Origin: Candidatus Altarchaeum sp.
Lineage (GTDB): Archaea > Altiarchaeota > Altiarchaeia > Altiarchaeales > Altiarchaeaceae
Direction: 5' to 3'
DNA length: 12,653 nt
Assembly (NCBI GenBank): GCA_018260615.1
Contig: JAGWDQ010000024.1
Coordinates: 1 to 12,653 of the forward strand
Under the pieces are notes generated by a model, which had not been told where the DNA came from, ran no database searches, and was given only the letters and a program-made list of their open reading frames with translations. The position numbers and the translations under genes are program-made. This document shows, piece by piece, positions 1 through 10,081 of this stretch (its first letter is position 1; every line of letters starts with the position of its first letter).

Positions 1-87
1 AGTAAAAAATAGGGTGTAATTATAATACTTAAACACTTTGCGAAAATCGGTGTTAAAAAAGAAATATTGGAAATATCTTAGAGAAAA

Positions 88-2521: not shown

Positions 2522-3358
2522 TCATATTAATTCCAGATTCTTTAAATTTTTGTTTCCTAATAATGATTTCATTTGTGTAATGGCAATTCGGTTTAATTGA
2601 ATTAACCTTTCGCTTTGTGACAAACCCTGATAAATCAATACGGAATTAATAGTTTCCATATTTGAAAGAACCACCAATTGTTCGATGGATGCCATATCCC
2701 GGATATTTCCTTCTGCATTTGGATTTTTGATTCGCCATTGTTGAGCTGTTTTACCAAACAATGCTACATTTAGCAGGTCAGCTTCATTAGCATAAACGAC
2801 CGAAATTTGATTTTTTGTAAGTTCTGCTGGAATTAAATTTTCTTTAATGGCATCGGTATGGATATGGTAATTTACTTTTGCAAGAGTTCGCTGCAGATTC
2901 CACTCTAAATTCAATCGTTTATTTTCATCTTCTTTAAGTCGCTGGAATTCTTTTATTAAGTAATATTTAAATTTGGGCGAAATCCATGAACCAAACTCAA
3001 AAGCAATATCTTTATGAGCAAAAGTACCTCCGCCGTATCGTCCGGTTTTAGAAATTATCCCCACAGCATTGGTTTTTTCAATCCATTGTTTGGCTGATAA
3101 AACAAAACCATTACTACCACTTTCATTTTTAATGTTACTGAATTCCGTAACATTAAAAAATGAATTGTTAATTTGCTCCCATAATCCCATAAACTCAATA
3201 GTATATCTGGTACTCAGCCAGTGAGAAATAACCAATCCGGTTGTTTCAGCATTTTTAAACCTTGCCATATCAGTTAATGAAATAAAATCATCCTGTTTTT
3301 TAGTAAAAACCGATATTTCTATATTCTCAATTTGTATTTTTTTTGATTTTTTCATCAT
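2522..3358 (-). CDS. KilA-N domain DNA-binding protein
   Basis: DFISLTDMA, W..TRYTIEFMGLWE, GRYGGGTFAHKDIAFEFGSWISPKFKYYLIKEFQRLK and KVNYHIHTDAIK..L match the widespread mobile KilA-N family. Confidence 0.9.
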   Translation of the reverse strand: MMKKSKKIQIENIEISVFTKKQDDFISLTDMARFKNAETTGLVISHWLSTRYTIEFMGLWEQINNSFFNVTEFSNIKNESGSNGFVLSAKQWIEKTNAVGIISKTGRYGGGTFAHKDIAFEFGSWISPKFKYYLIKEFQRLKEDENKRLNLEWNLQRTLAKVNYHIHTDAIKENLIPAELTKNQISVVYANEADLLNVALFGKTAQQWRIKNPNAEGNIRDMASIEQLVVLSNMETINSVLIYQGLSQSERLIQLNRIAITQMKSLLGNKNLKNLELI

Positions 3359-3403
3359 TTGTAAAATTTATTAAATTAAACCCTTATTTATCATAACCGT
3401 AAC

Positions 3404-3535
3404 TCATATTTTGCGCTTCTTAACTATTCTTTTATTACGTTTATTTATATATTCCTCAATAGTCACATACTCGCCTTTTTGATATGCTTCTCTTGCCTCA
3501 CGAATTTGTAAAGCAACATTTTGATCTTTCTCCAT
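3404..3535 (-). pseudogene. antitoxin-like remnant (43-aa ORF missed by the ORF track), probably part of a decayed toxin-antitoxin pair
   Basis: Manual translation gives MEKDQNVALQIREAREAYQKGEYVTIEEYINKRNKRIVKKRKI*. The REAREAYQKGEYVTIEE segment resembles RelB-type antitoxin C-termini. An in-frame upstream segment MLVNEMELLE ends at a TAA (3544-3542). The stop overlaps (ATGA) a tiny MSYGYDK* ORF at 3407-3384. Confidence 0.45.
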
Positions 3536-3585
3536 AATCTCTTATTCAAGCAGTTCCATTTCATTTACAAGCATTTTCCAGATAG

Positions 3586-3601
3586 CGAGTGATTTCGCTT
3601 T
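3586..3601. repeat. 16-bp inverted repeat, copy downstream of tnpB
   Basis: Perfect reverse complement of 4892-4907. Confidence 0.9.
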
Positions 3602-3700
3602 CTTTTCAGAATGCGAATTTGTTAAATTTTCAATATACCTCCAATCTAACTGGGTGACACCCGGCACCCTGTATTCCATTTGCGAACGCATTTGGAATTG
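3586..3700 (-). ncRNA. putative TnpB omegaRNA scaffold (3' part; 5' boundary unknown)
   Basis: Minus-strand hairpins lie at 3698-3673, 3669-3652 and 3617-3594 (TTCGC-A-TTCT-GAAA-AGAA-A-GCGAA, GNRA loop). They overlap the tnpB 3' end, the canonical omegaRNA location. Confidence 0.5.
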
Positions 3701-4844
3701 CTTTCTTTATTATGTTGTAAGCACCATTTACATCAGCATTTATGATTTTGCCCGATAATGTTTTAAACAATCCTCTGCAAATTCTCTTTCCTAAATACCG
3801 AGCATGATGCTTTATCGTTTCATCATCTAAAAAACTACATTTAGATGTATGTGCTTCATTAACAATTATTGTTTTGATTCCTTCCTCCTCTGCTTTATAC
3901 TTGAGCATTTCTATCAGTTTATTGAAAGGAACAGATACAAAGTTTTGGTTGTTCTTCTTGCCGATATCAATTTTTTGCTTCCAGTCATTGTTGTGTCCGA
4001 TTACTATTGTATCTATGCTGTTTGTTTTGCAGTAATCTATGATTTTTCTGCTTGCTTTATGAAAAAAGTCCTTTATTTTAAAATCCCTTTTTACCAATAA
4101 TCTGTTCAGTTGTTTTGTCCGTCCTTTGATTCCGCTCAAATCATAGTTTGATTGTATTTCTGCCTTTCTTTTGTTGTAGAAATGATTGACTGACTTAACA
4201 ATTCCGCCCTTGACAATAATTGGCATTTTACCAATATTATCTGCAATAGTTACGATATTGTTAAGTCCTATATCAATTCCCAAAATATTTTTAGTTGTTT
4301 CTATTAACGGTTTAATTGCCTTTTTATAAACAATATTGAGCATAAAGCCAACACCTTTTGGAACAATAGATGAAGTTCCAAGAACTGTTTCATCAGGCAA
4401 TCGTGTTTTAACTTCAATATCTATTTTTTTGGGAAATTCAACTTTATTTGAGACGACTTTAATTTGCTGATTTGTAAACAACAACATAAATTCACCATCT
4501 TTAGGTTTATATTTGGGTAGTGCCGGTTTGTTTTTAAACTTTTCCGGATGTTTTCTGTATTCTTTCATTGCCTTAAAGAATGCTTTCCAGTTTTTCTCAA
4601 CCAATATCAAAATTTGTTGTGCTGTTGCAGCTGGCAATTGTTTAAAATTCTCACTATTCTTTAACAAATAATACAATTGACTATATGTTATCCACTTCCC
4701 GGTTTTAATGAACTCCTGTCTGATGATGTAAATTGCTTCATTGTATAGGTTTTTAGCGATATGACATAGTTTACTTAATTCCTTATTGGCGTTGAGCCAT
4801 ATCTGTTCTGTTCTGTTCACTCCAGTTAACACTTCACTTAACAT
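3630..4844 (-). CDS. tnpB: RNA-guided endonuclease TnpB (IS200/IS605/IS607 OrfB family), RuvC-II-rearranged type
   Basis: N-terminal CHIAKNLYNEA helix. RuvC-I ILGIDIGLNN, RuvC-II region IVIGHNNDWKQ with downstream VNEAHTSKCS, RuvC-III INADVNGAYNI. Length 404 aa. Confidence 0.95.
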   Translation of the reverse strand: MLSEVLTGVNRTEQIWLNANKELSKLCHIAKNLYNEAIYIIRQEFIKTGKWITYSQLYYLLKNSENFKQLPAATAQQILILVEKNWKAFFKAMKEYRKHPEKFKNKPALPKYKPKDGEFMLLFTNQQIKVVSNKVEFPKKIDIEVKTRLPDETVLGTSSIVPKGVGFMLNIVYKKAIKPLIETTKNILGIDIGLNNIVTIADNIGKMPIIVKGGIVKSVNHFYNKRKAEIQSNYDLSGIKGRTKQLNRLLVKRDFKIKDFFHKASRKIIDYCKTNSIDTIVIGHNNDWKQKIDIGKKNNQNFVSVPFNKLIEMLKYKAEEEGIKTIIVNEAHTSKCSFLDDETIKHHARYLGKRICRGLFKTLSGKIINADVNGAYNIIKKAIPNAFANGIQGAGCHPVRLEVY

Positions 4845-4891
4845 TTTTATATTAAATAATTAATTTTTAAAACAAATTAATAAAAAATAAC

Positions 4892-4907
4892 AAAGCGAAA
4901 TCACTCG
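4892..4907. repeat. 16-bp inverted repeat, copy upstream of tnpB
   Basis: AAAGCGAAATCACTCG, the reverse complement of 3586-3601, lies 47 bp upstream of the tnpB ATG. Confidence 0.9.
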
Positions 4908-4943
4908 TATAAAAATATAAAATTTAGACACAAATAATTAAAT

Positions 4944-6710
4944 TTAATCGCAGCAATGGTCAAGCATTTCCCTTAAACTTTTTTTCTCTTCTTCCTTTTC
5001 TTCTTTTTTCCCCGTTTCTTCTTTTTTTATTTCATCCTTCTTTATCTCTTTCTTAAATTTTTCCTTTTCAGCCGAAATTTTCTTAATTTCAAAATTTTTC
5101 AATACGATTATTCCGTCCATTACAAACAAAACCAAAACTAAAAGCAGGAACTCAAATTTATAGTCAATAAGCAACGTATAAATTAATGTTATTCCGAAAA
5201 CCGTTATGAATATTGTGAATAGTCCGAAATACTTAAAATTAAATTTCTTAAATTCCTCCCATATTCCGGTAAGCGACATTCCGATTAATGCCGCAATTAA
5301 AATTTTCGGAACATCAACCCCGAGCATATAAAGGACTGTGAGGAAAATCCATGCCAGAGCGCAGGCATAACAATATGCACAATACCAGATATTAATTCGT
5401 TTTTTAACGATTGGCCGCAAAATTGAAAACAGGATAAACAGGACAATTATTGAGATGCTCGCAAAGATAAAAAATCCGGCATAAGAAAAGGTAACTGGCA
5501 ACACAATGCTGAAATTTAAAAATTTAAAATTTTCGTTAATTAAAATTATGGCAAGAATTAACATAAGCCATCCGATTAAATATCTTACAAGCCATGTTTC
5601 CTCTATTTTGGATAAATTTCTTCCGAATAAAGCAAGAGATAAAATTATAATAAGCGGAAGGACAAATATAAAATTGTAGATTGCCAAAAGTAAAATTCCG
5701 TAGTTAAAGTCCATGGTGTTCAAAATCGTCAAAATTCCCAGATATACCTGTCCCGTGCATGGAAGTTCAACCATTGCCACGAGGATTCCCAGAATAATTA
5801 CTGCCGGCAAAGTTCCTTTTTTTATGTACTTTTCAACCGTTCCTTTTGCTGACTTTGGAATTGCAAGCCATAAATTTTTTTCGCCGTTCTTTTTTAATGA
5901 TATATAAGTGTCTCTAAAAGCAAGCAAAACGCTGGTTAACAGAATTATAACAACCAAAGCATTGACAAAAATTATAAAGCCCAGATTGTTGATAAAATTT
6001 AGAAATTTTAATATTCCAATTCCAGCGAGGAAGTATGTAAGATAGACCGCCATAATATAAATTGAGCCGTAAATTGCCATCCGTCTCCTTGAAAAATTTG
6101 CCGAAGAAATCATAAATGTAATAAAAATAATCAGGACTCCCATCGCACAGGGATTAATTGAATCAATAATTGCAGCGCCAATTACAGTTAAAATAGTGAC
6201 CGGTGGAGGTGGCGGAACGGTGCAATTTCCTTCATAAATCTCTGCATGGACATCGTTTTGTTTTGCGAATTTTATGGCGTCTTTTAAATTTTTAGCAATT
6301 GACTCATCTCCGATTAATGCCGAGTCCCCGACAAAAATCGCAGGTACGCCGGACTCATTTGCCGGAATACAGTATCTTTCCATAAAGTCATTTAAAAGTG
6401 CCTGATTAGTTGCGTTATGATAAACCTCATAACTTTTAAATGAAATGTCGCATTGTGTACATATTGCCTTTACCATCGGCTCTATTGCCGCACAATGAGC
6501 GCATCCTTCCCCGTAAAAAAAGTAGATTGATATGCCTTTGCATGTGGAATTTGAATTGTCTGAATTGTTTAGATTGTTTAAATGGACATCACTGAAATTA
6601 CCTGAAATATCCAAAGCCGAAACACTTAAATTTAATATTGATAAAATTAACAGCAGTGCAATCGCCGATGCGAAAGGCAGTATGCCTGTCTTTTCTCGTC
6701 TTTTAGTCAT
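4944..6710 (-). CDS. thioredoxin/glutaredoxin + CcdA/DsbD-type transmembrane electron transporter fusion with extra Cys-rich membrane C-terminal domain
   Basis: N-terminal signal/anchor, then FYGEGCAHC (CxxC at 6492-6503) thioredoxin fold. CcdA redox cysteine motifs DSINPCAMGVL and VELPCTGQVY. Further TM helices carry CAYCYAC, and the C-terminus is HCCD. Confidence 0.85.
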   Translation of the reverse strand: MTKRREKTGILPFASAIALLLILSILNLSVSALDISGNFSDVHLNNLNNSDNSNSTCKGISIYFFYGEGCAHCAAIEPMVKAICTQCDISFKSYEVYHNATNQALLNDFMERYCIPANESGVPAIFVGDSALIGDESIAKNLKDAIKFAKQNDVHAEIYEGNCTVPPPPPVTILTVIGAAIIDSINPCAMGVLIIFITFMISSANFSRRRMAIYGSIYIMAVYLTYFLAGIGILKFLNFINNLGFIIFVNALVVIILLTSVLLAFRDTYISLKKNGEKNLWLAIPKSAKGTVEKYIKKGTLPAVIILGILVAMVELPCTGQVYLGILTILNTMDFNYGILLLAIYNFIFVLPLIIILSLALFGRNLSKIEETWLVRYLIGWLMLILAIILINENFKFLNFSIVLPVTFSYAGFFIFASISIIVLFILFSILRPIVKKRINIWYCAYCYACALAWIFLTVLYMLGVDVPKILIAALIGMSLTGIWEEFKKFNFKYFGLFTIFITVFGITLIYTLLIDYKFEFLLLVLVLFVMDGIIVLKNFEIKKISAEKEKFKKEIKKDEIKKEETGKKEEKEEEKKSLREMLDHCCD

Positions 6711-7956: not shown

Positions 7957-8086
7957 GCCGAGGTAGCTCAGTTGGTTGGAGCGCCAGACTCATAAGTAAA
8001 TTAAAATTTTATAAAAATTAAATTTTAAAATTAACCAATGGCGCTGAGATATCTGGAGGTCGTGTGTTCAAGTCACGCCCTCGGCA
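7957..8086 (+). tRNA. tRNA-Met(CAT), elongator type, with canonical 37/38 intron
   Basis: Acceptor GCCGAGG/CCTCGGC+A, D arm GCTC/GAGC, anticodon stem CCAGA/TCTGG, CAT at 7991-7993, T loop TTCAAGT. It does not start with the A1 typical of the archaeal initiator. Confidence 0.92.
7995..8050 (+). other. 56-nt tRNA intron with bulge-helix-bulge splice motif
   Basis: The central 4-bp helix is CTCA (7989-7992) / TGAG (8045-8048). The 3-nt bulges are TA^A and AT^A. Removal restores the 7-nt anticodon loop CTCATAA. Confidence 0.9.
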
Positions 8087-9418: not shown

Positions 9419-10081
9419 ATGGCAAAACAAGTCAGTCCGACACGGATGGAACTGCTTAGAATAAAGCAAAAAATAAAATTAGCACAAAAGGGACACAGTT
9501 TGCTTAAAAAGAAAAGAGATGCTTTAATGATGGAAATTTTTAAAATTGCAAAGAACATGGCAGATGTCAGGCCGCAAATTCATGAAAATATAAAAAGCGG
9601 GCAGCAGTCAATAATAACCGCACAGGCGATGGGAGGGCCCCTGGAGGTAAAAACAATCGGTGACTCTGCCGGCGAGATGCCGGAACTAAATATAAATTAT
9701 GAATCAGTCGGTGGCGTGAAACTTCCGAAGATAAATTTTGACAGGGAAAGTATGGGAAAAATTGAATATGGTATTGTAATGACCTCTTCATCAATAGATA
9801 ATTGTGTTGATAGATTTGAAAAGATAAAAGAAGATCTGTTATTACTTATTCAAACAGAAGAAACAATAAAACGACTGGCACAGGAGGTCATAAAAACAAA
9901 AAGAAGGGTAAATTCTCTTGAACACATATTGATCCCCCAGTTATTAAAAACACAAAAAGATATAAAAGCAAAACTTGAAGAGGCAGAGCGGGAAAATTTC
10001 TTTCGCCTGAAAATCGTTAAGAAAAAGTCCGAGAAAAAGCTGAAAGATGTAAGCCAAAAGAAAAATAAACCTAAAGAATAA
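9419..10081 (+). CDS. atpD: A/V-type ATP synthase subunit D
   Basis: SPTRMELLRIKQKIKLAQKGHSLLKKKRDAL and TKRRVNSLEHILIP...EEAERENFFRLK are conserved NtpD/AtpD helices. Length 220 aa. Confidence 0.95.
   Translation: MAKQVSPTRMELLRIKQKIKLAQKGHSLLKKKRDALMMEIFKIAKNMADVRPQIHENIKSGQQSIITAQAMGGPLEVKTIGDSAGEMPELNINYESVGGVKLPKINFDRESMGKIEYGIVMTSSSIDNCVDRFEKIKEDLLLLIQTEETIKRLAQEVIKTKRRVNSLEHILIPQLLKTQKDIKAKLEEAERENFFRLKIVKKKSEKKLKDVSQKKNKPKE

Follow-up and report, generated by a model that had tools for sequence, protein, structure and literature searches.

The window analysed here is a 12,653-nucleotide stretch of DNA from Candidatus Altarchaeum sp., contig C24 of the assembly G000 (2.2 Mb, 33% G+C, 148 contigs, 87% complete). 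At positions 3586-3601 it carries CGAGTGATTTCGCTTT, the exact reverse complement of AAAGCGAAATCACTCG at 4892-4907, and this inverted-repeat pair can be extended to 19 nucleotides at 95%. The sole open reading frame between the repeats is tnpB, which encodes a protein of 404 amino acids on the minus strand. Both observations bear out the original prediction for this DNA, which had described the 16-mers as perfect reverse complements enclosing nothing but tnpB. Comparison with other copies led us to the best explanation, which we hold to be probable, that window positions 3587 to 4906 are one copy of a 1.32-kb non-autonomous transposon of Altiarchaeales with an RNA-guided nuclease module as its sole cargo.

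G000 contains six full copies of the element, which are 90-96% identical, three more that are truncated by contig ends, and two remnants of its ends; one further independent insertion (L043) was found in a JGI metagenome contig. Seven insertions were compared, namely those on contigs C119, C13, C42, C70, C69 and C24 (the window copy), and L043. The sequence shared by every copy runs from [G/T/A]AGTGATTTCGCTTT to AAAGCGAAATCACT[C/T], and similarity between copies breaks off exactly at the repeat on both sides. The conserved terminal inverted repeat is therefore 15 bp long. On the tnpB strand the element begins with GAGTGATTTCGCTTT and ends with AAAGCGAAATCACTC, and the same repeat is found in at least seven independent insertions. 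As had been foreseen, the shared sequence ends at the repeat in all copies, with the exact limits at 3587 and 4906 rather than at 3586 and 4907. The C and G that make the window repeat 16 bp long are flank bases present in only two of the seven copies; the other copy is L043, where they belong to the flanking direct repeat. This disposes of the CG dinucleotide as a feature of the ends and as a 2-bp crossover core.

Within the 2.2-Mb genome, the 13-mer core of the repeat is restricted to the ends of tnpB copies and of their remnants. Because the core is confined in this way and similarity stops exactly at the repeat, the inverted repeat is far beyond chance; it is real and functional, and specific to the tnpB element, so that the possibility of an unrelated genomic repeat could be set aside. 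The six full copies and L043 agree in all of the inner 14 bp of the arms, while the outermost base is variable at the left end (G/T/A). Single-base differences were seen once in the partial C110 copy and once in the C44 remnant. The copies are not young, with a synonymous divergence (dS) of 0.11-0.33 between them, and their tnpB genes are intact and under purifying selection, the ratio of nonsynonymous to synonymous divergence (dN/dS) being 0.11-0.19.

Direct repeats of 6-8 bp abut both ends in six of the seven insertions. These are ATGTTGTT at C119 (8 bp), GTTTTAT(T) at C13 (7-8 bp), ATTATTT at C42 (7 bp), ACCACTT / ACAACTT at C70 (7 bp, with one mismatch), AATTAT at C69 (6 bp), and GTTATC at L043 (6 bp). 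No flanking direct repeat was found at the window copy (TTTTATAC versus GCTATCTG). Among 42 non-cognate flank pairs compared as a control, 35 shared nothing, and the longest exact match was 5 bp, rising to 6 bp when a single mismatch was tolerated. The decisive test of the duplication is the C13 locus, where G003 and G002, both sister species, have the two flanks joined directly, with 86-90% identity over 0.6-1.4 kb. The empty sites read ...AATTAT GTTTTATT CATT... and hold the 8-mer once, whereas it stands on both sides of the element in G000. The empty site of the C42 locus in G001 contains about one copy of the repeat. For the C119 and C69 loci, a clean empty site was not found in the sister species. 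These results demonstrate that the element inserts with a target-site duplication of 6-8 bp. The earlier statement that there is no such duplication is correct for the window copy and incorrect for the element.

The window copy was compared with its orthologous site in G003 (G003:C47:2898-3037), where the element is replaced by about 140 bp of different sequence in which a small open reading frame starts. Homology between G003 and the window resumes directly at the left end, and 6 nucleotides before the right end. From this comparison, about 125 bp beside the right end of the window copy appear to be missing or replaced in G000, a change that probably removed the right-hand duplication. The open reading frame of 43 amino acids beside the right end (window 3404-3586) is a remnant of a longer region in G003. 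When contigs of two groundwater DNA runs were compared with window 3000-5500, there was no joint across the element and so no empty allele of the window copy; a third run yielded nothing. The empty allele that had been predicted, TTTTATA(CG)CTATCTGG, is absent from G000 and from every fetched locus.

Immediately upstream of the left duplication, we observed ATTAT in five insertions, AATAT in one, and TATAT in the window copy, whose placement assumes an 8-bp duplication since the matching right repeat is missing. A[A/T]TAT is present in six of the seven insertions and [A/T]TAT in all seven. Against a background of 80% A+T, the p value for A[A/T]TAT is about 2e-10, a large margin for a motif chosen after the data were seen. 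An inverted counterpart of the motif is not present after the right duplication, and insertion is therefore orientation-specific. We can conclude that the element inserts in one orientation, immediately downstream of A[A/T]TAT.

A sister subfamily, the A3 type, with 70-73% protein identity is present in G002, in GCA_017973875, and in a contig labelled Altiarchaeum virus; a protein search also brought up a genome of the same genus, 'Candidatus Altiarchaeales archaeon A3'. The ends of the A3-type elements read GCTTGTTGCAAA[A/T]TAATTTAA on both sides, a different sequence that is again inverted and terminal. Three hairpins inside the coding end are conserved in the 3'-region alignment of both subfamilies. 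The last stem, TTCGC...GCGAA in the window type, becomes GTTGT...GCAAC in the A3 type, together with the left-end repeat. In this alignment the ends covary between the two subfamilies, with the terminal stem of the putative omegaRNA changing to match. Inverted repeats were not found in relatives at 55-59% identity. In G002, contig C48 contains a 28-bp palindrome of two abutted A3-type arms, GCTTGTTGCAAATTAATTTGCAACAAAC (L021 690-717), perhaps a minimal element, or else a relic of excision or of a junction. On contig C43 of the same genome (L014 2700-2790), the last 32 nucleotides of the right end are tandemly repeated with a unique spacer of 22 nucleotides, resembling a one-spacer array.

Wider scans for the repeat and its relatives were also carried out. 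A 14-mer scan of viral contigs gave single chance matches only. A pattern scan of 61 genomes of the phylum returned just solo right-end-like remnants in G002 and G003, chance matches with one mismatch, and an exact 15-mer in G060 without flanking similarity. The solo sequences, which end in AAAGCGAAATCACTC and lack tnpB (G003:C38:11500-11514, L079; G002:C12:2284-2337, L080), may be remnants or stand-alone omegaRNA ends. Related-locus scans of genomes and metagenomes yielded few close relatives, and look-ups of identical proteins, aimed at multi-contig relatives, led to one and the same locus in many samples and to no new insertions. A small domain-encoding mobile element of G000 was considered as part of the same system and rejected, as its ends differ (TGTTTAGC).

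The TnpB protein matches PF01385 (67 bits) and PF07282 (47.7 bits) in Pfam and NF040570 (196.6 bits) in NCBIfam. Its OrfB_IS605 RuvC and TNB domains and its D-E-D catalytic residues identify it as a TnpB nuclease of the OMEGA kind. The RuvC motifs GIDIG, VNEAHTS, and NADVN are present and align to the motifs of the solved Cas12f/TnpB-like chain 8j3r; the zinc finger is degenerate. In two tnpB copies (G000:C42:5367-6733, L006, and G000:C26:12133-12380), an in-frame palindromic insert of about 48 nucleotides, a small double-hairpin repeat of this genome, lies within the RuvC-III motif, between NADVN and GAYNI.

The putative omegaRNA region folds with a z score of -2.8, and its hairpins are kept in ten sequences from the two subfamilies, much of the region being also coding. 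Rfam gathering and E-value scans matched no omegaRNA family. In the last predicted hairpin, the 3' arm and the tail come from the right-end repeat, and in this model the right arm would double as transposon end and as last hairpin of the presumed omegaRNA. TnpB guides derive from the flank, outside the element, and differ between copies. If the guide begins at the right end, A[A/T]TAT would occupy the position required of a transposon-adjacent motif (TAM), because the sequence matched by the guide, which consists of the duplication and the flank, comes directly after it in the empty site.

No transposase gene linked to the element copies was found. Searches of the 87%-complete genome for Y1 (PF01797) and serine recombinase (PF00239) genes gave no match, and neither did a search for an ISC1217-type transposase (PF04693). 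Clustering of open reading frames for multi-copy transposases returned none apart from tnpB, because insertion sequences had collapsed onto single short contigs and were missed; a Pfam search of the genome revealed DDE transposases on these collapsed repeat contigs. One of them is an IS5-family element of about 1155 bp with DDE_Tnp_4 and HTH_Tnp_4 domains, present in at least 4-5 copies (G000 contig C51, L239 1-1103, and neighbouring contig ends). Its ends, GAGTGGTTGCGAATTAAG / GACCTGTTGCGAAATAAC, of which variants exist in G001 and G002, agree with the A3-type tnpB repeat at 16 of 20 positions (p <= 2e-4). GAGTGnTTnCG sites are confined to the tnpB ends, the IS5-like ends, and three others, and a GAG... 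terminus is typical of IS5-family ends. A DDE enzyme of the IS5 type (DDE_Tnp_4), or a relative of it, would be the best candidate partner of the element, without being an established one.

Neither the IS1380/IS4-like element (C28) nor the IS1634-like element (C19) was accepted as a partner, since neither has ends of significant similarity and the duplications are either TA/TTAA-like or 6 bp long beside unrelated ends. Window positions 1-53 are one end of the multi-copy IS1380/IS4-like element, with the terminal repeat ACACCGATTTTCGCA, which also closes at least 11 other contigs. In the sister species G001, a derivative of the IS5-like element of about 100 bp, a miniature inverted-repeat transposable element (MITE), has the same ends and a TATTA duplication (G001:C68, L246 ~1500-1690).

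We propose that a transposase acting in trans, most likely of the DDE type, would bind the double-stranded inverted repeats and make staggered cuts in the target. The mover might be the IS5-type insertion sequence, of which the same genus has several copies, or a relative of that sequence. The guide would be read from the right-hand copy of the duplication and the adjoining flank. Where the site is empty, the sequence matching the guide would follow A[A/T]TAT, acting as TAM, and TnpB would thus be able to cut empty alleles. The occupied left junction would retain a match of only 6-8 nucleotides, which should be too short for cleavage by TnpB. At the window copy, the duplication would have been removed by the loss or replacement of about 125 bp beside the right end.

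This proposal retains the outline of one of two models in the original prediction, a non-autonomous element with inverted-repeat ends moved in trans. The outline is supported because the repeat is terminal in every copy and covaries between the subfamilies, duplications are made, and the assembly shows DDE elements but no Y1 or serine TnpA. The lack of duplication, the CG core, and an unprecedented partnership, which had been part of that model, have to be given up. The pairing of TnpB with such a transposase is not without precedent, since DDE-associated TnpBs and solo TnpBs between inverted repeats have already been described (PMC10691335).

Other ways of moving the element, or of reading its repeat, were weighed against this proposal. 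In a classical IS200/IS605 (IS1341-type) solo tnpB element, single-stranded transfer by a Y1 TnpA in trans would use ATTAT as both Y1 target and TAM, and the repeat would be incidental to the end hairpins. ATTAT 5' of the element does resemble a typical Y1 target or TAM, there is a subterminal hairpin at the right end, and both Pfam and NCBIfam place the protein with IS605 OrfB/TnpB. Y1 transposition makes no duplications, however, and here the empty sites confirm them. In all copies the repeat is terminal, the 6-8 bp of the duplication keep ATTAT from abutting the left end, the left end has no hairpin, and a Y1 gene was not found in the 87%-complete genome, which leaves this explanation very unlikely. 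An IS607-type element would be moved by a serine recombinase TnpA in trans, which exchanges an identical 2-bp core (usually GG; CG in the original prediction) and makes no duplication, and its circularised repeats would form a palindromic site. The abutted ends would indeed make a 30-bp palindrome, to which the 28-bp palindrome of abutted ends in G002 may be compared; imperfect inverted repeats occur near IS607 ends (PMC6188088), and the closest TnpB outside Altiarchaeales (59% identity, from another metagenome) lies beside an IS607-type serine TnpA (MerR-Resolvase). The 6-8 bp duplications and the empty sites are nevertheless unlike a 2-bp exchange. Only two of the seven copies have identical junction dinucleotides, IS607 ends typically carry GG, and no serine recombinase (PF00239) was found in the 87%-complete genome. 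We regard this mode of transfer as scarcely credible.

A Cas1-type integrase, as proposed for the Asgard aCas1-TnpB transposons, would measure its duplications from the conserved adjacent motif. Anchoring to a one-sided motif with a slightly variable duplication length is loosely like leader-anchored Cas1 integration, many relatives at 55% identity come from Asgard archaea, the genome has one Cas1 gene, and aCas1-TnpB loci flanked by repeats have been published (PMC10691335). That single Cas1 gene is unlinked to any copy of the element, and the ends resemble those of the IS5 family and not casposon ends. Casposon duplications, moreover, are about 14-15 bp long, and we judge this mover as improbable as a Y1 enzyme. 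The second model of the original prediction took the right-end 16-mer for the guide, directing TnpB to the left-end copy and so regulating its own promoter. The arms are complementary, and the left arm stands beside a T-rich stretch, about 47 bp upstream of the tnpB start codon. The 16-mer, however, does not vary from copy to copy, and its place is within the element, as arm and tail of the predicted omegaRNA hairpin, not in the flank from which TnpB guides derive. The motif next to the left arm also differs between copies, as 6-8 variable bp intervene. This model does not stand, and its chance is slighter than that of either the Y1 or the Cas1 explanation. Finally, the element may be autonomous, or TnpB may take part in integration, its TAM recognition choosing or marking the site and TnpB perhaps making the staggered cuts itself. 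A role of TnpB in choosing the site may follow because the duplication always starts after A[A/T]TAT with the element in one orientation, and the TnpB nuclease has an RNase-H fold, like DDE enzymes. We consider this improbable too, if a little less so than the foregoing. If true, integration driven by TnpB would make the element a tnpB-only transposon, and would bear on the long-standing riddle of how solo tnpB elements can be mobile in archaea without a functional TnpA (PMC3119063).

What the copies display are the features of a cut-and-paste transposon of the DDE type, with terminal inverted repeats conserved at both ends and a duplication made on insertion, discordant at one locus (C70). 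Several observations nevertheless weigh against movement by a DDE enzyme in trans. At the C70 locus (G000:C70:18401-19732), the sister sites in G001 (C41, ~9581-9587) and G002 (C195) read ATTAT followed by GCAACAATT, that is, AAAAATTAT followed by GC..CAATT, without the 7-mer found on either side of the element in G000. This site needs an extra 9-nucleotide indel in the G000 lineage, or a deletion between TTAT repeats in the others or a different history, and is left unexplained. Neither of the two complete copies of the sister subfamily has a duplication. A variable duplication of 6-8 bp combined with a one-sided target motif is unusual for a two-fold symmetric DDE transpososome. The IS5-like ends agree with the window-type repeat at only 11 of 20 positions (p about 0.02), a weak likeness, and the IS5-like element is flanked by a 5-bp TAWTA duplication, not one of 6-8 bp. 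These ends are closer to the sister type than to the window type, and a transposase with both matching ends and a matching duplication length was not found. The absence of a Y1 or serine TnpA is not proven in a genome that is 87% complete, and the serine TnpA beside the nearest outside relative points away from DDE enzymes.

Among known systems, the closest are the six TnpB branches found with DDE transposases (DDE-1 to DDE-6), all with inverted terminal repeats and with solo TnpBs between the same ends (PMC10691335). The Altiarchaeum element resembles them in having tnpB within about 250 bp of the transposon end, symmetrical inverted repeats, and solo copies presumed to be moved in trans. It differs from the six branches, which were compared by description (PMC10691335), in that its copies have no linked transposase, its duplication is 6-8 bp long and variable in sequence with the conserved A[A/T]TAT outside it, and the nearest relatives of its TnpB are IS607-type or solo elements without inverted repeats. 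The DDE partner families ISL2, IS630, and IS1031 make duplications of 2-3 bp or TA. All three have been named as DDE partners of TnpB in a review (PMC13565253). TnpB inside inverted-repeat ends is already published; what differs here is the archaeal host, the unlinked transposase, the longer and variable duplication, and the motif outside it.

With the IS1341 group of IS200/IS605, the element shares tnpB as its one gene, the protein family, a T-rich 5-nucleotide motif on the 5' side, and an omegaRNA-like 3' region. That group has neither inverted repeats nor duplications, carries hairpins at both ends, and transposes as a single strand by Y1, whereas the Altiarchaeum element has terminal repeats and duplications. 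Inverted-repeat ends and duplications are absent from IS200/IS605 and IS607 alike (PMC6188088, PMC13565253). Fanzor transposons also have a TnpB-family nuclease riding with inverted repeats and target-site duplications, in which the 5' duplication belongs to the TAM and the 3' duplication to the scaffold (PMC13565253). Fanzors are eukaryotic, in contrast to the archaeal element, in which the variable duplication would be the start of the guide, with the TAM outside. As in MITEs of the IS5 family, the ends are related to an insertion sequence of the same genus, a transposase of its own is lacking, and there are several copies; unlike them, the element is 1.3 kb long, carries a protein gene under selection, and differs in duplication from its candidate parent (5 bp). 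Altiarchaeum has been reported as the most MITE-dense archaeon (PMC11602168).

TnpB in transposons that duplicate their target is rare among prokaryotes. Its usual role is that of a passenger in IS605 and IS607 elements, which excise without a scar, where its cleavage of the donor site after resealing causes the element to be copied back. The arrangement found here predicts that the duplication is the first part of the guide, and that nothing but the short length of the match protects the occupied site. A tnpB lineage whose relatives are of the IS607 type or solo would have switched to another kind of transposon end. The copies offer a natural data set, in that they are intact though diverged, some of their empty sites have been verified, ends and terminal stem change together between the two subfamilies, and the target motif stands where a TAM would have to lie, though separated from the element by the variable duplication of 6-8 bp.

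Table 1. Parts of the element and its immediate flanks, in window coordinates
Feature	Position	Strand	Remarks
Left-end terminal inverted repeat (upstream of tnpB), 15 bp	4892-4906	-	GAGTGATTTCGCTTT on the tnpB strand; similarity among seven insertions starts here
Right-end terminal inverted repeat, 15 bp	3587-3601	-	AAAGCGAAATCACTC on the tnpB strand; similarity between copies ends here
tnpB, 404 amino acids	3630-4844	-	OrfB_IS605 and Cas12f1-like TNB domains
Left-end untranslated region, from repeat to start codon	4845-4891	-	AT-rich, presumed promoter; in all copies with scattered substitutions
Putative omegaRNA scaffold	3587-3830	-	Overlaps the 3' end of tnpB and extends to the right end
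Terminal hairpin of the putative omegaRNA, TTCGC...GCGAA	3594-3617	-	Predicted fold
Putative guide, flank DNA past the right end	3567-3586	-	GCTATCTGGAAAATGC...; suggested by guide position in known TnpB systems; sequence varies between copies
Left target-site duplication position	4907-4914	-	TTTTATAC; no right-end partner in the window copy
TAM-like motif, TATAT	4915-4919	-	Adjoins the left duplication on its upstream side; placed on the assumption of an 8-bp duplication; putative TAM role

The genes that neighbour the element are archaeal and include those of an RFC-like ATPase, an archaeal phosphopantothenate synthetase, and Trm5/Tyw2, together with an intron-bearing tRNA. The tRNA gene, at window 7957-8086, is 130 nucleotides long with its intron, as is usual in archaea. 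Two genes from the element, at window 2522-3358, lies the gene of a KilA-N domain protein, a domain typical of viruses and mobile DNA.

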